Shown: positions 8,232 to 63,794 of the stretch, one piece after another | Position numbering within the stretch: position 1 is the stretch's first letter | Layout: every line of letters begins with the position of its first letter | NCBI GenBank assembly: GCA_964597575.1 | Contig: CAZQXB010000001.1 | Coordinates: 274,111 to 338,110, forward strand | Source: an uncultured Gammaproteobacteria bacterium | GTDB taxonomy: Bacteria; Patescibacteriota; Patescibacteriia; Magasanikbacterales; UBA922 | Reading direction: 5' to 3' | DNA length: 64,000 bases | Translations under genes and position numbers: made by a program | The notes under the pieces: model-generated | Seen by the model: only the letters and a program-made list of their open reading frames with translations | Told to the model about the DNA's origin: nothing | The model's database searches: none

Positions 8232-9287
8232 ATGCGAACTGACGATTTCGATTTTTTTCTTCCAGATGAACGGATTGCACAATCACCAATTGAGCCGCGG
8301 GATCATTCAAAACTCATGGTGATTGATCGAAACAAGAAAACGATTGAACATCGGCAGTTTTTTGATCTCTTGTCGTACCTTCGTCCGGGTGATCTTCTTG
8401 TTTGGAATAATTCGAAGGTGTTTCGAGCGCGGTTGTTTGGTCGTTTATTTAGTCCATCCGGAGAACCTCTTCGTGAGCATGCAAAACCCATTGAAATTTT
8501 TCTCGTCCGTCCTACAGAAAATACTGGGGTTTGGCATGCTCTCGCAAAACCTGCCAAACATGTGAGTCATGGTATGCAAATTCGTTTTGCATCAGATTTT
8601 GCCTGTGAAGTGGTGGTAAAAAAAGATGATGGAACACTACTTGTTCAGTTTTCTTACAATGAAGCGACGGTTCGTGTGAAAGCAAATCAATATGGAGAAG
8701 TTCCTCTTCCCCCGTATATTAAAAAGGGCGTGAATGAACTTGTGGCATACCAAACGATCTATGCTCGGGAGGAGGGTTCGGTAGCAGCGCCTACCGCGGG
8801 TTTTCATTTCACCCCCGAACTTATTGAAAAAATAAAAGAGAAAGGTGTCTCGTTTGCAGAGGTGACTCTCCATGTAGGGCTAGGCACTTTTTTACCTGTA
8901 AAAAGTGAGCAGATTGAGGATCATACCATGCATAGTGAATGGGTGGAGCTGCCAGACGCAACAGTTCAGGCTATTCATACTACGAAAGCCAGCGGTGGAA
9001 GAGTTATCGCTGTCGGCACGACGACAGTCCGTACTTTAGAGGGGGTCGCGAAGTATGCTACTGGCCTTGCCGCCTATGCAGGGGATATTAATATGTTTAT
9101 TACCCCAGGATTTCATTTTCAGGTGGTCGATGCGCTTGTCACAAATTTTCATCTTCCAAAATCAACACTCCTTATGCTGGTGTCGGCATTTGCCAATGAC
9201 CGAGAATTTATCTTGCGTGCCTACGCTGAGGCGGTGGAAAAAGAATATCGATTTTTTAGTTTTGGCGATGCTATGTTTATTGTTTAG
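8232..9287 (+). CDS. queA: S-adenosylmethionine:tRNA ribosyltransferase-isomerase
   Basis: Typical QueA N-terminus (DFDFFLPDERIAQ) and VIAVGTTTVRTLE. Confidence 0.9.
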   Translation: MRTDDFDFFLPDERIAQSPIEPRDHSKLMVIDRNKKTIEHRQFFDLLSYLRPGDLLVWNNSKVFRARLFGRLFSPSGEPLREHAKPIEIFLVRPTENTGVWHALAKPAKHVSHGMQIRFASDFACEVVVKKDDGTLLVQFSYNEATVRVKANQYGEVPLPPYIKKGVNELVAYQTIYAREEGSVAAPTAGFHFTPELIEKIKEKGVSFAEVTLHVGLGTFLPVKSEQIEDHTMHSEWVELPDATVQAIHTTKASGGRVIAVGTTTVRTLEGVAKYATGLAAYAGDINMFITPGFHFQVVDALVTNFHLPKSTLLMLVSAFANDREFILRAYAEAVEKEYRFFSFGDAMFIV

Positions 9288-9290
9288 TTT

Positions 9291-9698
9291 ATGAACATCT
9301 TTTTTTCTTCGCTCGTGGCGTTACCGATATTTGTAGCCCTCGACTTTTTGTGGCTCGGCATTATTATGCGTTCTTTTTACGTGCGCGAACTTGGCCCCTT
9401 GGCGAGGCAGGGTATTCATTATCCAAGTGCTTTTGTAGTGTATGTGCTTATGGCGCTCAGTGTTGTGGTGTTTGTTTTGCCCCGGTTTTTCGGAATGCCG
9501 GTAACATTAAAAGTATTTGCGCTCGGTGCACTTCTCGGTTTTTTAATCTACGGAATTTACGATTTCACTAATTACGCCACTCTTGCTCATTGGTCATGGC
9601 GTTTTATGGTCGTTGATATTCTTTGGGGAGGGGTCGTGTATGGCGTAACAAGCATACTAACTCTCTCAATTCTTCGATGGTTAAAAATATTTTCCTAA
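9291..9698 (+). CDS. DUF2177-like small membrane protein
   Basis: Four predicted TM segments; ATGA overlap with the queA stop. Confidence 0.5.
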   Translation: MNIFFSSLVALPIFVALDFLWLGIIMRSFYVRELGPLARQGIHYPSAFVVYVLMALSVVVFVLPRFFGMPVTLKVFALGALLGFLIYGIYDFTNYATLAHWSWRFMVVDILWGGVVYGVTSILTLSILRWLKIFS

Positions 9699-9835
9699 AA
9701 GGTGATTTTTAACGTGAATTCTGTGCGATGGTAGTCAGGGGGCAGGGGAACGATAAGAAGCCACAAGGGTCACCAAATTAGGGTGGACAAGGAGATGGTG
9801 AAGATAAAGAAGAATAGTGACTCTCGCAAAAAATA

Positions 9836-9878
9836 ATGCAAAAAAAGAATGGTGCTTAGTTGCACCATTCTTTTTTTA
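9836..9878. terminator. Bidirectional terminator between convergent genes
   Basis: A-run, gaatggtgc-ttagt-gcaccattc hairpin, T-run. Confidence 0.6.
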
Positions 9879-11031
9879 GTTCCAAAAATCTTTTTTCTTT
9901 GATACTTTCTCGAATGTCTTTTGTCAGAGAAAGAAAGAAGTGGAGGTTGTGAATCGTTGCCAAACGGTAGGCGAGAAGTTCTTCAGCTCGAAAAAGATGG
10001 TGCAAATAACTCCTGGTAAATGTGCGGCAAGTGCTGCATGCACACGTTGGGTCAATAGGTTTTTTATCTTCACGAAATTCTGCGTTGGTAATAGAGAAGC
10101 GATATTTATTTTCTTTCGTCCCTCCAGTTTTTGGAGAAATAAATAAACTTCCATTCCGCGCCATCCGGCTTGGGGAAACACAGTCGAACATGTCTACTCC
10201 ATGTTCCACAACATCAAACAAATCACTTGGTGAAAAACCAAGGCCCATCGTGTAGCGTGGTTTATTTTCTGGAAGAAGTGGAGAGAGGTAGGAAAGAATA
10301 TCCCGTGTCGCTTCCATGTTGTATCCGATGGATTCTCCTCCTATGGCAATTCCGTCAAACGGCATGGCAGTAACAGCTTTTGCGCTCGCTTCGCGGAGTT
10401 CTTTGTGGTTTCCTCCTTGGATAATGCCGAATAAAAATTGACGATATCCGTGATACGACGTATTTTTTTGGTGTTCTTCAATACAACGCGCGGCCCAGCG
10501 GTGGGTGCGCTCCATGGCTTTTGTGGCGTAGGCGGTGTCGGCCGAATCCGGAGTGCATTCATCGAATGCCATAATAATATCTGCTCCTAATTTGTGCTGC
10601 ACCTCAATAGCGGATTCTGGAGTGAAGCGATGTTTGCTTCCGTCGATGTGTGAAGTAAATGTGACTCCGTCTTCGTCAATTGAAGTAAGTTTGTTTGCTC
10701 CTGCTTCTTTTTTTTCTTTTTGTGCACCTAAAGAAAAAACTTGAAATCCACCACTATCCGTTAAGATAGGCTTACCCCACTGCATGAATGTGTGCAATCC
10801 ACCGGCATTGCCAATGAGATCTTCTCCCGGGCGTAAATGGAGGTGATAGGTATTCGCTAAAATAATTTGCGCACCCAGTTCGTTTAGGTCGCGTGGGTCA
10901 AGGCTCTTTACGGTCGCCTGAGTTCCGACCGGCATAAATATGGGCGTTTCAATGTCGCCATGATCCGTATGAATAACCCCGGTGCGTGCACGAGTTTTGG
11001 AATCCTGTGAGGTGATTTCGAAAAAAGACAT
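9856..11031 (-). CDS. tgt: Queuine tRNA-ribosyltransferase
   Basis: MSFFEITSQD...ETPIFMPVGT start and the zinc-site region CxCxxC match Tgt. Start placed at the internal ATG 11031. Confidence 0.9.
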   Translation of the reverse strand: MSFFEITSQDSKTRARTGVIHTDHGDIETPIFMPVGTQATVKSLDPRDLNELGAQIILANTYHLHLRPGEDLIGNAGGLHTFMQWGKPILTDSGGFQVFSLGAQKEKKEAGANKLTSIDEDGVTFTSHIDGSKHRFTPESAIEVQHKLGADIIMAFDECTPDSADTAYATKAMERTHRWAARCIEEHQKNTSYHGYRQFLFGIIQGGNHKELREASAKAVTAMPFDGIAIGGESIGYNMEATRDILSYLSPLLPENKPRYTMGLGFSPSDLFDVVEHGVDMFDCVSPSRMARNGSLFISPKTGGTKENKYRFSITNAEFREDKKPIDPTCACSTCRTFTRSYLHHLFRAEELLAYRLATIHNLHFFLSLTKDIRESIKEKRFLELKKEWCN

Positions 11032-11098
11032 AGAAGAATAGTTGACCATAACAATACGGACTTTTGCGCCGCTTGGCAAGGTGGTCTACAATAGGGGT

Positions 11099-18096: not shown

Positions 18097-19023
18097 ATGT
18101 ATCACGTCCTCCTCTTCTACAAGCTGTGCAAAGTCGCGAATCCTGATCGCGAAGTTTTAATTCAAAAAGAAGTCTGTAAAGCCCTCGGGCTTACTGGCAG
18201 AATTTTGATTGCAGAATATGGAATTAATGGTACGGTTGGAGGAAGCAAAGAAGCCGTTGCTCAGTACCGCGCGTATATGGACGCCACTCGTCCGTGGCAA
18301 AATATTGATTGGAAAGAGAGTGTAAGTGACGTGGTACCATTCCCACGGTTGCGAGTGCGGGTGCGTGACGAAATTATTACAACCGGTGCGAAAGATATGG
18401 TCACTGGCGCGTGTGCGAGAGCTCGCCATGTATCTCGAGATACATTTCATGACTGGCTCGTGAAAGGCGAAGACATGGTCATTCTCGATATGCGCAATGA
18501 CTATGAGTGGGAAATTGGACGTTTTGTAAACTCAGTTCGTCCACCTATGAAATTTTTTCGTGAACTGAAAGATCATATCGAGTGGTATAAAGAAAACTTT
18601 ATTGGGAAAAAAGTAGTAACCTTTTGTACCGGGGGTATTCGTTGTGAACCAGCGACAGCCTTTTTACTTCAACATGGTTTTGATCCGAAAAATTTATATC
18701 AACTCGAGGGGGGTATTGTGAAGTACGCAGAAAAATATGGAAACGATGGTTTCTATGAAGGGAAGTGCTTTGTGTTTGATGACCGTATTGCGGTGCCAGT
18801 AAATACCAGCGAAACCGCCGTGATTGTAGGTTCGTGCAAACACTGCAAAACAAAAAATGATACATATCGTAACTGTGCCAATAAAGAATGTAATGCACTT
18901 TTTTTGGCATGTGATGCTTGTAATAGCACCCTCATGAATACCTGCAGTGAGGTATGTAAAGGCGTGATTGTACTAGATAAGACCGCTATTCGACCAGTTA
19001 GCCAGACAATGACATTAGGTTGA
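18097..19023 (+). CDS. trhO: Rhodanese-domain tRNA uridine(34) hydroxylase TrhO/YceA family
   Basis: FCTGGIRCE rhodanese active-site loop; KCFVFDDR; C-terminal Cys-rich region. Confidence 0.8.
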   Translation: MYHVLLFYKLCKVANPDREVLIQKEVCKALGLTGRILIAEYGINGTVGGSKEAVAQYRAYMDATRPWQNIDWKESVSDVVPFPRLRVRVRDEIITTGAKDMVTGACARARHVSRDTFHDWLVKGEDMVILDMRNDYEWEIGRFVNSVRPPMKFFRELKDHIEWYKENFIGKKVVTFCTGGIRCEPATAFLLQHGFDPKNLYQLEGGIVKYAEKYGNDGFYEGKCFVFDDRIAVPVNTSETAVIVGSCKHCKTKNDTYRNCANKECNALFLACDACNSTLMNTCSEVCKGVIVLDKTAIRPVSQTMTLG

Positions 19024-19057
19024 CAAAATTCCCTAATTCCTATAGGGTAGAAACCCT

Positions 19058-19190
19058 ATGAGACAAAGAGAAAACAACATGATGATGTATATGATGGCGT
19101 TCGGAATGCTGGAGTTTTTTGCTGCATAGTTTACTTGAAACGCAGAAAAGCACTCCAGCCTTCACTCGAAGGCCTTTTGTTTTTTTAGGG
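19058..19190 (+). promoter_or_regulatory. Candidate Met-codon-rich leader ORF (MRQRENNMMMYMMAFGMLEFFAA) plus terminator hairpin upstream of the SAM hydroxide adenosyltransferase gene
   Basis: ORF 19058-19129 has 7 ATG codons in 23 codons. Stem ctggagt...actccag (19111-19158), then terminator gccttc-actc-gaaggc plus T-run (19158-19190). Confidence 0.3.
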
Positions 19191-19194
19191 TTAT

Positions 19195-19983
19195 ATGTTT
19201 GTTACGATCATTAACGATTGTCGCGATGCGAATGCATTTGGGAGGCAGGGGACGCGGGTAGCTGCTCTTTTTGGTGCACCAATAACGTTGGTTGGTGTCG
19301 AGAATGATTTGGCTGCAGCCGGGAATTTAATTGATGTGCTTGATGCAGGTATGGGAGAAGAGGGGGTTGTGCTTGTGAATGTGGCACCCCGCCACGGAGA
19401 GGCAAAAAAACATGAAAATGGCACACCGTTTGGTTTTTTTTGGTACAAGAAAACACTGATTGTGGCTTCGGTTGACGGGGCGACGGTGGCGCTGGCGAAC
19501 CATCTTGGCCTTGTGAGTGATTTTCAGGTAACGGATATGAGGGAGGTTTTACAGTGGGCTGCGGCAAAGGGATTGATGTCTGAAGAAGATGCTCGAAGAA
19601 TTACCAAAACTCAGTTTCGGAGTTTTGAATATATTCCGCGTTTAGCATTTTGGGTGTGGCAAAAACAGGCGGTTCCTACCACTCCGTATGTGTTTCCTCC
19701 CTGTGATATTGCAGGAAGAATTTGGCAGATCGATAATTTTGGTAACTGCAAAACAACGACTCTCCCTGAAGAAATTAATTTTCCTGAAGGAAAAAGCGTT
19801 GCAACAAGTACTGGCGACACCGTCGCATATGCCCGTCTTAAGGATGTGCCAAACCACGAGCAGGCTCTCGTTATTGGAAGTTCTGGTATTGGAGAAAGGC
19901 GATTTGTTGAATTGGTGATTCAAGGGGGAAATGCCGCGGGGGCTACTGGGCTTAAGCAGGGTGATAAACTCTTTTTTTCGTAA
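19195..19983 (+). CDS. S-adenosyl-L-methionine hydroxide adenosyltransferase (DUF62 / SAM hydrolase family)
   Basis: N-terminal IINDCRDANAFG (TDFG-like) region and C-terminal VIGSSGIGE...GLKQGDKLFF, typical of DUF62. Confidence 0.7.
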   Translation: MFVTIINDCRDANAFGRQGTRVAALFGAPITLVGVENDLAAAGNLIDVLDAGMGEEGVVLVNVAPRHGEAKKHENGTPFGFFWYKKTLIVASVDGATVALANHLGLVSDFQVTDMREVLQWAAAKGLMSEEDARRITKTQFRSFEYIPRLAFWVWQKQAVPTTPYVFPPCDIAGRIWQIDNFGNCKTTTLPEEINFPEGKSVATSTGDTVAYARLKDVPNHEQALVIGSSGIGERRFVELVIQGGNAAGATGLKQGDKLFFS

Positions 19984-20010: not shown

Positions 20011-20043
20011 AACAAAAAATCCGGCTACTGGCCGGATTTTTTG
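20011..20043. terminator. Bidirectional terminator
   Basis: atccggc-tactg-gccggat flanked by A-run and T-run. Confidence 0.7.
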
Positions 20044-20048
20044 ATGAA

Positions 20049-20291
20049 TTACATTGTTACTTTTGAACCTTTTTTCTGCATTTCTTTGATGAAGGCAAAG
20101 GCCCCTTTTTTCTTCAGAGTACGAAGTGCACGAGTTGAGATCATGACTTTGATTGTCTTTTTGAGCTCAGGAATGAAAACTGATTTTTTTTGTAAGTTTG
20201 CGTACAAGCGGCGTTTGGTTTTCACCTTTGAGTGAGAAACGTTATTGCCGACGATCGTTTTCTTTCCGGTTAAATCGCATTTTCCAGCCAT
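20049..20291 (-). CDS. rpmB: 50S ribosomal protein L28
   Basis: MAGKCDLTGKKTIVGNNVSHSKVKTKRR matches the L28 pattern. Confidence 0.85.
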   Translation of the reverse strand: MAGKCDLTGKKTIVGNNVSHSKVKTKRRLYANLQKKSVFIPELKKTIKVMISTRALRTLKKKGAFAFIKEMQKKGSKVTM

Positions 20292-25971: not shown

Positions 25972-27505
<1,534 letters not shown>

Positions 27506-51884: not shown

Positions 51885-53051
51885 CTACGGAGCCACGACG
51901 TTCAGGTAGCGGATGATCTGTCCCTCCATCCCGATTTCACTCGGTTGAAGCGGCTGACCGTTGCTCCAGAATCTGGTCCCTGTGAGCTGCGCAGCGTAGA
52001 TGGTGTCGGTGTGCCCTTGTCCCGGCTCGAGCCGGGCGATGTCCACCACGACGGTGAGCTGAATGGTTTCACCTCTCTCGACGGTCTGTACCTGTCCTTC
52101 TTTCGCGAGGGACATGATGCCATCCTGGTCGCTTCTCAGCATGCCGGTCCGCCGAACAAGCGGCGTCCTTTCAGACGTGAGCCCTTCGAGACCTCCGACA
52201 TGGAAACGACCATTCGTGATCACCGGATTGTCGCCCTGCCAGAGCGTCATGTTGCCGTTGCCGATCTGCCAGATGAAGTACTCGATGCCGCCGAACTGCA
52301 GCAGATCGCAGGCGGTGATGTTGAGCACCGCTACGAGCTCGTTCGTGACGCCCGTCGGTCCGAAGTAGTCGGGGAAACCCTGGTCTTGCGTGATCCAGAC
52401 TTTCCGGCCCGTCACCGAGCACGGATCGCTCGCCGGACGAACCACACGATATGTGTCGTGCGTGGCGTCGTTCCGGATGAGCCGCGCTGCCTTCCCATCC
52501 TCCGTGCGGGTTGCGCGGAGCATGTCTCTCATGAGCCGGACCGAGTAGATACCATCCTCCTCGGCCGTTATGGGAATCCGACCGTACAGGGTGAGTCGGA
52601 GCGTGCGCCTTTCGGGCACGTTCGTTACATCCTGCGCGAGAGGTACCGAGATGATCCCGCCGATCATCTCGAAGAGCTTCTCGTAGCTTCCGTCGTGCTC
52701 CACCTTGCGGAACACTTCGGTCATGTGCGGGATCTCGAGGAAGATCGGGCTGACGTCGACCGTATTGCAGGCCGTGATCTCGAGGGTGATGAGGCGGGCC
52801 TCCCACCCGCGGTTGTACGTCCGCAGATCGTCGGTGGTGACCACGTTGATGTCGTAGTCGCCGTCCGGACACTTCTGGTCGAGTCGCTCCTCGAGCGTGA
52901 GCTCGGGATCCTCCCCCGACGGCTCCCCCTGGGGGAACGTGACGTCCGGCAGATGGATGTTGACGGTCGGCGCCGGGGCCATGGGCTCCTCACCGCACGC
53001 GGCGATGATGCTGGCGAGCGCGATGCTCGCCAGCAGGTTGAACTTCTTCAT
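51885..53051 (-). CDS. Lipoprotein (388 aa), high-GC codon usage
   Basis: RBS gggaggaag. Signal peptide MKKFNLLASIALASIIAAC with lipobox. GC3-rich codons. Confidence 0.7.
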   Translation of the reverse strand: MKKFNLLASIALASIIAACGEEPMAPAPTVNIHLPDVTFPQGEPSGEDPELTLEERLDQKCPDGDYDINVVTTDDLRTYNRGWEARLITLEITACNTVDVSPIFLEIPHMTEVFRKVEHDGSYEKLFEMIGGIISVPLAQDVTNVPERRTLRLTLYGRIPITAEEDGIYSVRLMRDMLRATRTEDGKAARLIRNDATHDTYRVVRPASDPCSVTGRKVWITQDQGFPDYFGPTGVTNELVAVLNITACDLLQFGGIEYFIWQIGNGNMTLWQGDNPVITNGRFHVGGLEGLTSERTPLVRRTGMLRSDQDGIMSLAKEGQVQTVERGETIQLTVVVDIARLEPGQGHTDTIYAAQLTGTRFWSNGQPLQPSEIGMEGQIIRYLNVVAP

Positions 53052-53246
53052 GGTAACTTCCTCCCTGGAAGTATGGTGAGAATGGACGCGTGATTGCGCC
53101 AGTCTATATTTGGGTTTTTGATTCCCCTTCGAGAGAAGATACATCAGTGTCCCATATAGGGCCACGACGTACCCTCCTTCGAAGGAGAATATTGTAAAGA
53201 AATTGTTGTTCACTTGTAGAGACAGATCTCTATTTATGAACAAGAG

Positions 53247-53317
53247 AGTATATCATAAAATGGTGGTTTTGTCAAGAGGTAAAAGGTTATATTTCTCTTA
53301 TTTTAGGTAAATTATGA
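53247..53317 (-). promoter_or_regulatory. Island promoter 1 (TTGACA-17-TATACT on the minus strand) plus conserved upstream element
   Basis: -35 at 53270-53275, -10 at 53247-53252. Element tcttattttaggtaaattatga lies 21 bp beyond the -35. Confidence 0.6.
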
Positions 53318-53343
53318 CGTCTATGTTTGCCTTTAAAAAGTAA

Positions 53344-53381
53344 AACTTCCTCGTGTCGACCCGATGGGACAGGAGGAAGTA
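53344..53381 (-). terminator. Terminator for the 250-aa island gene
   Basis: cttcctc...gaggaag stem followed (minus strand) by ttttacttttt. Confidence 0.5.
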
Positions 53382-53438
53382 GGTGGGCGTAGTGCCCGGT
53401 AGGTAGGACCCCACATCACTCCGGAGAGTGGAAAGAGG

Positions 53439-54191
53439 TTATGACTTGGTTCCAGAGAGAGTATCGAAGAATTTGCCTAGGCCCAAGTAGACCCGGTACT
53501 TCTTCTTATCCGGCTCCCTCGGACCGTAGAACAGACCCTCGTCGTTGAGGTACGGCTCTCCGTACATTACTCCCATGACCGGTCTGTAGTATGGGCGCCA
53601 ACACTCGGGATCGCGCTCGCCTGCTTGTTGGGCGAAGAAGAAGATCCGGTTCGGCATCTTGCGCGTCCAATGGACTATCCCGTACGAGTCCTTCAGGTCA
53701 GGACGCTCTTGTTCCGGTCTCACTTCGAAACTCATCGAGGTGGAGGCTTCGAAGAGCTCTCGGAAGTCCGCGTGGGATGAGTTGAACGGGACATCCATTC
53801 CGGGGTTCAAAAGCCCCTCGGTGAACAGTCCTTGGTCCATTCGGAAACCGTGCATCCCACCTTCATCTTCTGGGACGTACCAGTTCCTTCTCATCGTGAG
53901 CTTAAGTTCTTTCGTGTGAAAGGCCTTTTGAGAGGCCTCGAGAAAGCTACCGCATTGAGCGCGGAACTCGTCGGGGGAGATCGGGATCGTGAACACCCCC
54001 ATCCTCTTTTTTCTTTCGAGGATGGCGAAGAAGTGGCTAGGTGAATCGCTGGTCAAATGTCCAGCATCCTCCTCGCTCTTCTCGGTCATCTCCCATCCCC
54101 AGAGCCTCTGCCTTTTCTTCGCCACCACGACCTGCGCGACCCGCTCTTCCTTAGAGAAGAAGTTCTTTGCGTCTTCATTGTTATTGGCCAT
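53439..54191 (-). CDS. Hypothetical cytoplasmic protein (250 aa), high-GC codon usage
   Basis: RBS ggagagggaag; no signal peptide; no recognisable motif. Confidence 0.55.
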   Translation of the reverse strand: MANNNEDAKNFFSKEERVAQVVVAKKRQRLWGWEMTEKSEEDAGHLTSDSPSHFFAILERKKRMGVFTIPISPDEFRAQCGSFLEASQKAFHTKELKLTMRRNWYVPEDEGGMHGFRMDQGLFTEGLLNPGMDVPFNSSHADFRELFEASTSMSFEVRPEQERPDLKDSYGIVHWTRKMPNRIFFFAQQAGERDPECWRPYYRPVMGVMYGEPYLNDEGLFYGPREPDKKKYRVYLGLGKFFDTLSGTKS

Positions 54192-54252
54192 CTGATCTTC
54201 CCTCTCCTTTTTGGGGTTGTTATGCTACCTTTGCTTTAAAAAGGTAACAAAA

Positions 54253-54326
54253 AATTATACTCCTTTTTTTTGGTTTTGTCAAGAGGTAAAAGGTTATATT
54301 TCTCTTATTTTAGATAAATTATATGA
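54253..54326 (-). promoter_or_regulatory. Island promoter 2 (TTGACA-17-TATAAT) plus conserved upstream element
   Basis: -35 at 54276-54281, -10 at 54253-54258. Element 54303-54326 lies 22 bp from the -35. 40 bp identical to promoter 1. Confidence 0.6.
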
Positions 54327-54398
54327 TTCATACGGGTCATAAAAATGAGAGCAAACAAAAACCACCAACCGGTGAAAAGGTTGGTGGTTAATATGAGC

Positions 54399-54481
54399 AA
54401 ACTCTCTTTGAAAACAAACTCATGTTTATTTTCACAGTGAAATTTGGGGCCAGAGCATTCGCGAACGAATGTCTGGCCCGA
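54399..54481. repeat. 83-bp direct repeat copy 2
   Basis: See copy 1. Confidence 0.85.
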
Positions 54482-54534
54482 ACCTGCCGGGGGAGTCTCG
54501 GTAGACTCTACCTAGGTAGGCGGGCAGGGTGCCC

Positions 54535-55128
54535 TTACTGATTCGACATGATGGTGTAGCTTCTCGTCGTGTTGCTGAACTCGACGATCGCCGGAGACCC
54601 ATCTGCGCGGAGCGCGTCGAATTCGACGAGCCTGACCTCTCGGGTAACGCCCGGTCGGATCCACGGATTGGTGTCCACGACGAACGTGAGCAGGTGGGGA
54701 CCATCTTCGACGAGAACGTCATCGTCATCTTCGTTGAGCGTCTCGCTCCACGAGATCACGAGGTTGTTCGACCCGTCATCGACGCGCTCGACGTCGCCGA
54801 GGTTCCTTCCATCGAAGGAGACCGCGACGATGTTCGAGATCGAGTCGTTGAAGAGGGTGCCGAGGAGAACCTCGGTGTACTCCACCGAAACGTCCTTGGA
54901 AGCCGGGTTCCACCGGAGCTCGAGGGTGACGGCGAAGGGTTCACCTGCCTCGACTTCGAGCCCATCGTTGATGGGGAACATGGTCACCGCCATGTCCGGG
55001 TCCGGTTGCGGTTCGCCCAGGTTCTTGATGTCGACCTCGCGGTAATCGAGGGGCGACAGATCCGTCCTCCCACATGCCGTGGAGAAGAGCGTGGGGAGCA
55101 AAGCGTAGCAGAGCAGTCGGTTGAACAT
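54535..55128 (-). CDS. Lipoprotein (197 aa), high-GC codon usage
   Basis: RBS aaggaggaag; signal peptide ending LFSTAC; acidic mature part. Confidence 0.65.
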   Translation of the reverse strand: MFNRLLCYALLPTLFSTACGRTDLSPLDYREVDIKNLGEPQPDPDMAVTMFPINDGLEVEAGEPFAVTLELRWNPASKDVSVEYTEVLLGTLFNDSISNIVAVSFDGRNLGDVERVDDGSNNLVISWSETLNEDDDDVLVEDGPHLLTFVVDTNPWIRPGVTREVRLVEFDALRADGSPAIVEFSNTTRSYTIMSNQ

Positions 55129-55334
55129 GGCAACTTCCTCCTTGGAAGTGTGTTAGAGTGGCGCTCCATGCGCCAATCTCTCTATCAAGGTTTGTATTTA
55201 TTCCCCTTCGAGTAAAGATACATCAGACGCTCCACCTGGGAACGCGACGTACCTGTATTCGAAGAGGAATGTGTCTATATAAAGAGCAAAAATGCTTCAC
55301 AGGTGGCTTTTTAGGCAAACACTGTGAACGGCAT

Positions 55335-62300: not shown

Positions 62301-63794
62301 CTACTTCTTTCGCGGCAACACGGCTTTCAACCAACCACTCAACCGACTCTTCTGCTTGCCACGAATATGGGCGCGCGCGGTTTGGGTTTTCACGACATTA
62401 ATCCAATCAGGGTTTGGACCTTTGCGATTTTTATCAACGAGAATTTCTACGACATCACCATTTTTGAGTGCAGTTTCGAGACTCGTCAGTTTATCGTTCA
62501 CGATCGCGCCACTACATTTATTTCCGATATCTGAATGAATGTGATACCCAAAATCGATCGGTGTGGCGCCTTCTGGTAAGTCGATGACATCCCCCTTCGG
62601 GGTAAACACGAAAATACGGTCCTGAAGAAAATTCACTTTAATTTCTTCTAAGTCCGAGAGGCCGTTTAATAAGTCTTTTTGAATTTCGGCTAATTCCTTT
62701 ACCCAGCGGAGTTCTTTTTTAGGAATAAGAGCACCGTTCTCATCGTAATGCCAGTGTGCGGCCACACCGTACTCAGCTTCCTCGTGCATTTCTGTGGTAC
62801 GGATTTGAAACTCAATCGTATCTCCATTTTCTAAAAATACGGACGTGTGGAGTGATTTATACCCATTCGGTTTCGGTTGAGAAATATAATCTTTAATACG
62901 CCCTTTGACCGGCTTCCATAATTTATGAAGAACGCCAAGGGCTGCATAACAATCGGCCATGGTGGGCACAATAATCCGGAAAGCAATGAGGTCGTGGATA
63001 TTGGTCACTTCACCTTGTTTGCGCTGAAGTTTCAAAAAGAAACTATAGAGTCTCTTTTTTCGTCCATACAAACTGAGATAGGGGATGCCCGCTTCGGCCA
63101 GTTCTTTCTTAACCAGTTCTTCAATTCTCGTAAATTCTGTTTCTTTGCCGGCCAACTTTTCTTCTTGAATTTTCTTTGTTTTTACGTATTCTTCAGGATA
63201 CACATACTGAAACGACAGGTCTTCAAGTTCACCTTTCATTTCTCCCATACCCAGACGGTTGGCAATTGGAGCGTAAATTTCTAAACTCTCAAGGGCAATG
63301 CGATAGCGTTTGTTCGGGGGCAGGGCGCCGAGCGTTTCCAAATTGTGAATGCGGTCGGCAAATTTAATAATCATGACCCGAATATCTTCGGCCATGGCGA
63401 TAAACATTTTTCGTAAATTCTCAATGTAGCGCTCCACGCCACGGTATTTTAATTTTCCAAGCTTGGTAATACCATTTACAAGGTTCATGATTTCGCTCCC
63501 GAATTCTTTTTCAATATCTTCAAGTGTAGTCGAAGTGTCTTCTGGTACATCATGAAGAAGGGTCGCCATGACAAGAACTGGGTCAATACGCATTCCGGCT
63601 AAGCGGTGCGCGGCTGCAAGCGGGTGAATGATATAGGGCTCTCCAGATTTACGAAACTGACCTTCATGAGCCCGCGCTGCGAATTCGTAGGCGCGCCGCA
63701 CTTTTTGAATATCAAAAGACTTCGGAGTATACCCCTCAATAATCTGAATAAGAGTCTCGATCGTTTGCGGATTTGGTTGTGGGGTGCTCGGCAT
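62301..63794 (-). CDS. rel: Short RelA/SpoT-family (p)ppGpp synthetase/hydrolase (HD + synthetase + TGS; no ACT domain)
   Basis: HDVPEDT HD motif, RIKDYISQPKPNGYKSLHTSV synthetase motif, and TGS region. Confidence 0.85.
   Translation of the reverse strand: MPSTPQPNPQTIETLIQIIEGYTPKSFDIQKVRRAYEFAARAHEGQFRKSGEPYIIHPLAAAHRLAGMRIDPVLVMATLLHDVPEDTSTTLEDIEKEFGSEIMNLVNGITKLGKLKYRGVERYIENLRKMFIAMAEDIRVMIIKFADRIHNLETLGALPPNKRYRIALESLEIYAPIANRLGMGEMKGELEDLSFQYVYPEEYVKTKKIQEEKLAGKETEFTRIEELVKKELAEAGIPYLSLYGRKKRLYSFFLKLQRKQGEVTNIHDLIAFRIIVPTMADCYAALGVLHKLWKPVKGRIKDYISQPKPNGYKSLHTSVFLENGDTIEFQIRTTEMHEEAEYGVAAHWHYDENGALIPKKELRWVKELAEIQKDLLNGLSDLEEIKVNFLQDRIFVFTPKGDVIDLPEGATPIDFGYHIHSDIGNKCSGAIVNDKLTSLETALKNGDVVEILVDKNRKGPNPDWINVVKTQTARAHIRGKQKSRLSGWLKAVLPRKK

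Follow-up and report, generated by a model that had tools for sequence, protein, structure and literature searches.

A short leader open reading frame (ORF) located between trhO and a gene of the DUF62 (S-adenosylmethionine (SAM) hydroxide adenosyltransferase) fold in a patescibacterial genome is likely to form, together with the RNA around it, a methionine-specific, ribosome-mediated (leader-peptide) transcription attenuator. The DNA analysed (the window) is a stretch of 64,000 nucleotides from contig CAZQXB010000001.1 (assembly GCA_964597575.1; positions 274,111 to 338,110), assigned to the Magasanikbacterales (Patescibacteriota), and all coordinates given below without a locus label refer to it. 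The coordinates of the features are collected in Table 1. The initial annotation of the window had suggested Met-dependent attenuation of a Met-releasing enzyme, and this suggestion is supported by comparative evidence, as the leader, the terminator and the antiterminator recur across lineages.

The 23-codon ORF with five methionine (Met) codons in six that had been described between the two genes was found at 19058-19129. The Met codons of the run occupy positions 19079-81, 19082-84, 19085-87, 19091-93 and 19094-96 (five of six consecutive codons), a sixth Met codon lies outside the run (19106-08), and the ORF ends with a TAG stop codon (19127-29). A search of both strands of the 64 kb with the pattern ATGATGATGNNNATGATG, allowing at most one mismatch, returned this single match (shuffle expectation 0.00, 100 shuffles), and the leader run was also the sole site in the window with at least four ATG per six in-frame codons. 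The run was not called as a repeat by Tandem Repeats Finder.

The entire intergenic RNA is more stable than shuffled sequences (z = -5.06), and its dominant fold is a long hairpin (approximately 19098-19172, -26.2 kcal/mol). The 5' arm of this hairpin corresponds to the final nine codons of the leader and stops 1 nt short of the stop codon, with the TAG lying in the apical loop. The pairing originally proposed between the 3' end of the ORF (gctggagt) and a downstream segment (actccagc) is present in the minimum-free-energy (MFE) fold, in which GCTGGAGT (19108-15) is paired with ACTCCAGC (19152-59). An intrinsic terminator had likewise been placed just before the ribosome-binding site (RBS) of the DUF62 gene, and a terminator scan identified it at 19158-19173, ending 21 nt upstream of that gene. 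The 3' arm of the long hairpin takes G19158, C19159 and U19161-C19163 from the 5' arm of the terminator (five of its six bases), together with C19167-A19170 and G19172 from the terminator loop and 3' arm (four of the six bases of the latter). The long hairpin, or antiterminator, thus uses bases from both arms of the terminator, and the two structures cannot coexist. The ribosome-binding region of the DUF62 gene (AGGG/ATG) lies 3' of the hairpins and outside both of them.

Table 1. Features of the leader region, the regulated gene and its neighbours (window coordinates).
Feature	Position	Strand	Basis
Putative -35 box TTGACA, overlapping the trhO stop codon TGA (19021-23)	19020..19025	+	Read from sequence; kept in L002 and L005
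Putative -10 box TAGGGT (TAGAGT in L002 and L005), 17-nt spacer	19043..19048	+	Box position across loci
Leader ORF, 23 codons plus TAG, encoding MRQRENNMMMYMMAFGMLEFFAA	19058..19129	+	ORF list and translation
Proposed regulatory Met-codon run, ATG ATG ATG TAT ATG ATG	19079..19096	+	Read from sequence
Antiterminator 5' arm (segment 2), within the 3' part of the leader ORF	19098..19125	+	MFE fold and four-sequence consensus fold
Antiterminator 3' arm (segment 3)	19142..19172	+	Dot-bracket of the MFE fold
Intrinsic terminator hairpin GCCTTC-ACTC-GAAGGC (segments 3:4), -8.0 kcal/mol	19158..19173	+	Terminator scan; kept in L001, L002 and L005
Terminator U-tract CTTTTGTTTTTTT	19174..19186	+	Sequence and terminator scan
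Putative weak Shine-Dalgarno sequence AGGG, 4 nt 5' of the DUF62 start codon	19187..19190	+	Read from sequence
Regulated gene, divergent patescibacterial DUF62 / SAM hydroxide adenosyltransferase (SAM hydrolase, chlorinase, fluorinase) fold	19195..19983	+	Pfam SAM_HAT_C; AlphaFold/Foldseek
trhO (UPF0176/rhodanese tRNA U34 hydroxylase family), outside the regulatory unit	18097..19023	+	Pfam UPF0176_N, Rhodanese, Rhodanese_C
13-bp palindromic hairpin with flanking T-runs, between the convergent DUF62 and rpmB genes	20013..20043	.	Terminator scan
rpmB	20049..20291	-	Pfam Ribosomal_L28

The same leader was sought upstream from the DUF62 genes of relatives, as the initial annotation had recommended, and was found in all three syntenic relatives and in about 26 of 80 more distant loci. 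The three close relatives (loci L001, L002 and L005, which together with the window constitute the window clade of four sequences) encode DUF62-like proteins displaying 74-77% identity to that of the window, on contigs with the same gene order: trhO, leader, DUF62, rpmB on the minus strand and then an M50 peptidase gene. Their intergenic regions each contain an ORF of 23-25 codons (MQRNQGNKSMMGMMMAFETLEFFAA, MKKSQQQNVMMGMMMAFETLEFFAA and MKDHLFTSMRVMMAFRTLEFFAA). Within the clade, the N-terminal half of the leader ORF is variable, with preservation of the frame, and the sequence is nearly invariant from the Met run through to the U-tract, excepting the apical loop; the C-terminal AF..LEFFAA of the peptide is conserved, and conservation is confined to the part of the sequence contributing to RNA structure. 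Structure prediction, proposed at the outset as a check for alternative pairings, gave an RNAalifold consensus of the four sequences identical to the antiterminator, with 26 pairs and consumption of both terminator arms, and analogous pairings were obtained for most of the other loci. For this hairpin, 96% of the cells were paired in the clade, versus 39-55% when the partners were slid. One compensatory change was detected, from G-C to A-U in L001. Covariation is not significant in so small a clade, and greater weight was therefore placed on the architecture conserved across lineages.

A scan of a genome collection with a profile for the family yielded 80 patescibacterial loci with DUF62 proteins 44-55% identical to that of the window. 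In the 300 nt upstream from these genes, at least four ATG per six in-frame codons were found on the sense strand in 21 of the 80 loci and on the antisense strand in none; no such site was present in the DUF62 coding sequences of the 80 loci on either strand, and the DNA further upstream contained one in 86.6 kb. With a looser threshold of three in six, the corresponding numbers were 29 loci for the sense strand versus two for the antisense strand. A convincing short Met-run ORF (e.g. MRDTFAVMMMSMMMAGRLGPVRSRA, MTTSNPTMMKMMMPRLRGLLS, MNVKAQIEMMMAMMTLKNEGTFSYI and MNKLSYNMMTMMSRPLCG) was recognised in about 26 of the 80 loci. These ORFs start at an ATG and are mostly 14-43 codons long, and their peptides have the Met run alone in common across lineages, the residues in and after the run varying freely. 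The leader-bearing DUF62 genes span several clades, with protein identity as low as 38% (median 50%), and include records named Wildermuth-, Uhr-, Falkow-, Yanofsky-, Komeili-, Moranii- and Dojkabacteria. The gene upstream from the leader varies among these loci and is on the opposite strand (divergent) in nine of 23.

The downstream elements recur with the ORF. A terminator is present in 26 of the 28 leader loci scanned, and a GC hairpin with a T-run lies 11-110 nt 5' of the DUF62 ATG in nearly all the Met-run loci. In most loci, the 5' arm of the terminator pairs with a segment located 5-30 nt upstream of the leader stop codon; this segment begins 7-16 nt past the last Met codon, and the z values relative to shuffled sequences are mostly between -2 and -5. 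A clear hairpin between segments 1 and 2 (1:2, the protector hairpin) was found in L074 and, by inspection, also in L063, L020 and L041. In a control in which segments were swapped between loci, the cognate segment had a mean rank of 7.8 of 25 (13 expected), supporting cognate complementarity in a test blunted by GGAGG/CCUCC-type arms common to many loci. The poor ranking of the window clade in this control is due to an antiterminator in which most of the pairing involves bases immediately 5' of the terminator.

The leader ORF also occupies a fixed position relative to a promoter. In the window, the -10 box ends 9 nt short of the leader ATG. Relative to this ATG, TTGAC is found at -40..-34 in 13 of the 28 loci (0.22 expected), and TAnnnT is found at -17..-12 in 22 of them (3.0 expected). 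The window has no Shine-Dalgarno sequence ahead of the leader ORF. From the positions of the promoter boxes, transcription probably starts at or very near the ATG, giving a leader mRNA that is leaderless or almost so. The fixed distance from the -35 and -10 boxes to the ATG independently validates the ATG frame as the frame read, rather than GAT or TGA; Asp codons (GAU GAU) or stops (UGA) as alternative readings of the run were rejected, given that the starts in the ATG frame match the promoter spacing and that stops interrupt the +1 frame. As trhO and the leader are not separated by a terminator, transcripts reading through from trhO would enter the attenuator with a leader ORF that is not leaderless.

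A link between the leader and Met-tRNA comes from a Candidatus Dojkabacteria metagenome-assembled genome (MAG; JAUZRK010000011.1, L074:1354-3790), in which a Met-run leader (MKIFIVNTNSMMMPRIGGIC) and a terminator precede a DUF62-metG operon. The metG gene, encoding methionyl-tRNA synthetase (MetRS; Pfam tRNA-synt_1g, E = 2e-86), overlaps the DUF62 gene by 11 nt, and this leader displays the full classical design, with both 1:2 and 3:4 hairpins. The presence of the leader before this operon ties the element to Met-tRNA. L074 was the only one of 84 DUF62 loci examined in which metG was adjacent to the DUF62 gene. Another Dojkabacteria genome (GCA_054680995.1, L208:2366-2500) has an 18-codon MMM ORF (MQFELNENKMMMQTSILF) and a run of 10 T residues directly 5' of metG, with no DUF62 gene. 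The ORF may be a Met leader acting on metG itself, but its fold is no better than that of shuffled sequences (z = +0.46). Among five Dojkabacteria metG contexts (six loci), this weak MMM ORF was the only candidate for a Met leader before metG alone, the other four contexts (five loci) having nothing comparable.

The assignment of the regulated gene to DUF62 is based on thin sequence evidence and much stronger structural evidence. The protein matched Pfam SAM_HAT_C with 30.5 bits (cut-off 25.5), and its DxFGN motif ('vdnFGNckt') aligned with 'iDRFGNiit' of MJ1651 (named '(R)-SAM hydrolase' in the PDB). The AlphaFold model has a predicted local distance difference test score (pLDDT) of 92.5, and all 32 of its Foldseek matches in the PDB with E <= 1e-3 are DUF62-family enzymes (template modelling (TM) scores of 0.53-0.68, E values of 5e-13 to 8e-7). 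They comprise uncharacterised TM and TTHA proteins, the PH0463 SAM hydroxide adenosyltransferase, the MJ1651 SAM hydrolase, the SalL and ClA chlorinases and fluorinase. To our knowledge, all characterised enzymes with this fold cleave SAM at C5', releasing L-methionine. Archaeal DUF62 members have been reported to prefer the inactive (R)-SAM epimer (bioRxiv 10.1101/2025.08.29.672840, 2025 preprint).

The features of the sequence and the alternative folds, along with the way in which they are conserved and arranged in different lineages, are observed in the DNA, and the mechanism that they suggest would operate as follows. Transcription would start from the promoter with its -10 box 9 nt before the leader AUG, and the leader would be translated from a leaderless mRNA. 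With a plentiful supply of Met-tRNA(Met), the ribosome would pass the Met codons and reach the stop codon at 19127-29, covering segment 2 (19098-19125); segment 3 would then be free to pair with segment 4, and the resulting terminator would stop transcription 21 nt before the DUF62 gene. If charged elongator tRNA-Met were scarce, the ribosome would stall within the run (19079-19096). The footprint of a ribosome extends about 12-15 nt 3' of the A site, and the stalled ribosome would reach at most the base of segment 2, so that, as a minimum, the core 19108-25 would be available for pairing with 19142-59 and the -26 kcal/mol antiterminator (2:3) could form. The antiterminator would cost the terminator its two G-C pairs proximal to the U-tract, or all its pairs if the ribosome stalled early in the run, and RNA polymerase would continue past the weakened terminator into the DUF62 gene. 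As all characterised enzymes with the DUF62 fold release L-Met, induction of this gene would return methionine from the SAM pool.

Several observations weigh against the attenuator interpretation. In the window copy, the ORF region gives only a weak fold (-10.5 kcal/mol) in place of a strong 1:2 protector hairpin, and an untranslated leader would therefore be read through. Covariation in the clade is not significant (four sequences and one compensatory pair, a level reached by 115 of 500 shuffles). No antiterminator was detectable in L062, no terminator was found in L076 and L077 under the criteria used, and a leader is completely absent from about 50 of the 80 DUF62 loci. At the level of the enzyme, Pfam SAM_HAT_N was not detected in the protein at E <= 1e-3, and a search of PDB sequences with the family profile returned nothing at E <= 0.01, a 43-residue match over the motif being obtained at E = 0.05; the window protein is highly divergent, and its SAM-cleaving, Met-releasing activity is predicted from the fold. 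The release of Met from SAM would also be circular if MetK were the sole source of SAM. Finally, all the evidence is computational: where transcription starts, that the ORF is translated, that ribosomes stall and transcription terminates, and what the enzyme does are all inferred from the sequence.

Among the alternatives, the one that best accommodates these data is a ligand-sensing arrest peptide, in which a Met-rich nascent chain would stall the ribosome on SAM or free Met (as for TnaC and SpeFL), such that an excess of SAM, and not Met starvation, would induce the enzyme. Such a peptide would have the same RNA architecture, it would be physiologically sensible for SAM to induce an enzyme that cleaves it, and the C-terminal AF..LEFFAA is conserved within the window clade. 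Known arrest peptides require specific conserved motifs, whereas only the Met run is conserved across lineages here; the RNA hairpin encoded at the C-terminus accounts in full for the conservation seen there within the clade, and the DUF62-metG operon of L074 points to tRNA charging. We therefore consider an arrest peptide improbable.

A riboswitch or a protein-binding structured leader, with the small ORF being incidental, is a still poorer match. In its favour, the intergenic RNA is significantly more stable than shuffled sequences, and Met and SAM genes in other phyla are controlled by S-box, SAM-II and T-box RNAs (PMC1262725, PMC2965389). However, the structured-RNA reading is countered by the absence of any Rfam match at the gathering threshold, with only chance-level matches at E <= 10, and by the nature of the structure, a plain hairpin with no conserved junctions or loops and a variable apical loop. 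Furthermore, the leaders share no alignable RNA, yet have an in-frame Met run in a promoter-proximal ORF, which a ligand-binding RNA would not need. We judge this explanation very unlikely. An equally slim chance can be accorded to a functional small Met-rich protein, with hairpins simply ending transcription of the ORF itself or of trhO. Points in its favour are the conservation of the ORF, the presence of a promoter for it and the window terminator, which would also halt read-through from trhO, an objection foreseen in the initial annotation. However, the peptide is not conserved beyond the Met run and differs in length (14-43 codons in most loci), the ORF is always followed by a DUF62 gene on the same strand, 11-110 nt past the terminator, and a simple small gene would not need an antiterminator overlapping the end of its ORF. 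The terminator is not just that of trhO, since a different gene lies upstream at other loci (divergent in nine of 23) and the promoter directly precedes the leader ATG. Lastly, a chance origin, as an unconserved ATG microsatellite beside an ordinary terminator, can be dismissed almost entirely: no matches are expected in shuffled sequences, no tandem repeat was called, and the run, kept in frame in the three syntenic relatives, recurs in about 26 distant lineages and is strictly specific for strand and position, none being found in antisense or coding sequence.

The attenuator interpretation can also be compared with known systems. The leader resembles those of the trpL, hisL, leuL, thrL, pheL and ilv type in E. 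coli and Salmonella in being a short ORF with a cluster of codons for a single amino acid, in having a mutually exclusive antiterminator and terminator, with the U-tract terminator just before the structural gene, and in the location of the 5' strand of the antiterminator in the last codons of the ORF, where a terminating ribosome could cover it. It differs from them in its Met codons, its patescibacterial host and its target, a SAM-cleaving, salvage-type gene rather than a biosynthetic operon, and also in its apparently leaderless mRNA and in the lack of a convincing 1:2 hairpin in the window copy. There is no similarity of sequence or covariance model to the classical leaders: the window gave no match in Rfam 15 at the gathering threshold, including to His_leader, Leu_leader, Thr_leader, Trp_leader and Phe_leader, and a search of 18950-19260 at E <= 10 returned only chance-level matches to three miRNA families and rnk_pseudo (14.3 bits, versus a threshold of 55).

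Aminoacyl-tRNA synthetase genes are under leader-peptide control in E. coli pheST. Similarly, a His-codon leader has been described for hisS/hisZ in bacilli (PMC2965389), and leader-peptide control for trpS/leuS in Streptomyces (PMC1262725). Like these leaders, that of L074 precedes a synthetase operon, in this case for MetRS, and would sense the cognate charged tRNA; unlike in these systems, metG is part of the unit at just one of 84 DUF62 loci. As outlined in a preprint, leaderless polycysteine short ORFs in mycobacteria sense Cys by ribosome stalling at several loci and in several lineages, the stalled ribosomes blocking an mRNA structure that sequesters the downstream RBS, and thus exerting translational control (Canestrari et al., bioRxiv 10.1101/834739). 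Like the mycobacterial ORFs, as presented in that outline, the leader described here repeats the codon of a single amino acid in a short ORF ahead of a gene of related metabolism, is present at several loci and in several lineages and would act as a ribosome-stalling sensor, probably on a leaderless mRNA, but its output is a U-tract terminator, with the RBS outside the hairpins, and the amino acid and the phylum are different. S-box/SAM riboswitches and Met T-boxes, which control termination in Met and SAM genes at the RNA level (PMC2965389, PMC1262725), are functional analogues, but they sense SAM or uncharged tRNA via a structured RNA, with no ORF. The Rfam search gave no SAM riboswitch, SAH or T-box match in the window.

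The DUF62 loci without a leader include one clade of 26 loci that is wholly leader-free, with records named Levy-, Roizman- and Woesebacteria. In this clade, a -10 box is often present about 10 nt before the DUF62 ATG. In leader-free clades (L013, L016, L029, L061, L071 and others), the region about 10-25 nt upstream of the DUF62 gene contains a TATAAT-like box, about 10 nt from the start codon. The DUF62 mRNA itself seems to be leaderless in these clades, and the leader ORF seems to take the same promoter-proximal position in the others. A search of 20 loci of the leader-free type at the Rfam gathering threshold yielded no Rfam element, whether a riboswitch (SAM and SAH types included), a T-box or a leader family. 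Two leader-free loci, from a Levyibacteriota and a relative (L009:1380-1500 and L010:1400-1500), share a promoter and a short untranslated leader ending in a small hairpin and a T-run right before the ATG; this leader contains no ORF and matches nothing in Rfam. A LOOT RNA (L019:273-394, 85 bits) and a group I intron (L039:812-1008, 69 bits) were identified by Rfam in two patescibacterial MAGs, close to their DUF62 genes. A metagenome scan with ATGATGATGNNNATGATGATG for Met-run leaders before other genes returned almost exclusively (ATG)n/(CAT)n microsatellites from eukaryote-like contigs, with a terminator in one weak candidate only, and was uninformative, being swamped by these microsatellites.

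Downstream from the DUF62 gene, the hairpin at 20013-20043, between convergent genes, is likely to be a bidirectional terminator, making the regulated unit monocistronic in this genome. A complete 16S rRNA gene is present at 25972-27504, with no 23S rRNA gene in the next 36 kb, indicating that the rRNA genes are unlinked; in related loci, the DUF62 gene is often located within 1-2 kb of rRNA or tRNA genes, with the 23S rRNA gene upstream (L009 and L010) or the 16S rRNA gene downstream (L014, L018, L059 and L078). The queA and tgt genes lie 8-10 kb upstream (8232-11079); the QueA enzyme, which acts in queuosine synthesis, depends on SAM and releases Met. A RelA/SpoT homologue at the end of the window (62301-63794) provides this reduced genome with a second system linked to uncharged tRNA. 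No Met-run leader precedes queA/tgt or the RelA/SpoT homologue. A block at 51885-55215, which may be acquired DNA, has a G+C content of 54%, versus 42-47% elsewhere, and Pfam gave no match at E <= 1e-5 to any of its three ORFs (452, 250 and 228 aa).

Leader-peptide attenuation is a textbook mechanism, and the novelty here, within that known mechanism, is the Met specificity, the phylum (Patescibacteria), the class of the target gene and the probably leaderless transcript. A Met version was found neither in Rfam 15 nor in the literature searched, in which full-text queries turned up neither a leader peptide nor an attenuator for methionine, nor any leader peptide from the candidate phyla radiation (CPR); a 2005 survey lists methionine among the pathways regulated by riboswitches rather than by attenuators. 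Such leaders may be rare because Met codons double as start codons, and a leaderless context with no Shine-Dalgarno sequence would avoid internal initiation. On a broader and decidedly tentative view, which we hold to be possible rather than likely, the leaderless-mRNA Met attenuator, the first of its kind, would constitute a phylum-wide 'Met ribulon' in Patescibacteria: reduced, probably Met-auxotrophic symbionts would use the SAM pool (their own, host-derived or the inactive (R)-epimer) as a Met reserve, mobilised by a starvation-induced DUF62 hydrolase that is co-regulated with MetRS in some lineages. The element would be among the very few cis-regulatory RNA elements recognised in Patescibacteria/CPR, and its signature (a promoter, a leaderless Met-run ORF and a terminator) could be used in the annotation of CPR genomes. 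The regulatory context also argues for a role of DUF62 in the supply of methionine from SAM, complementing recent work on (R)-SAM hydrolases.

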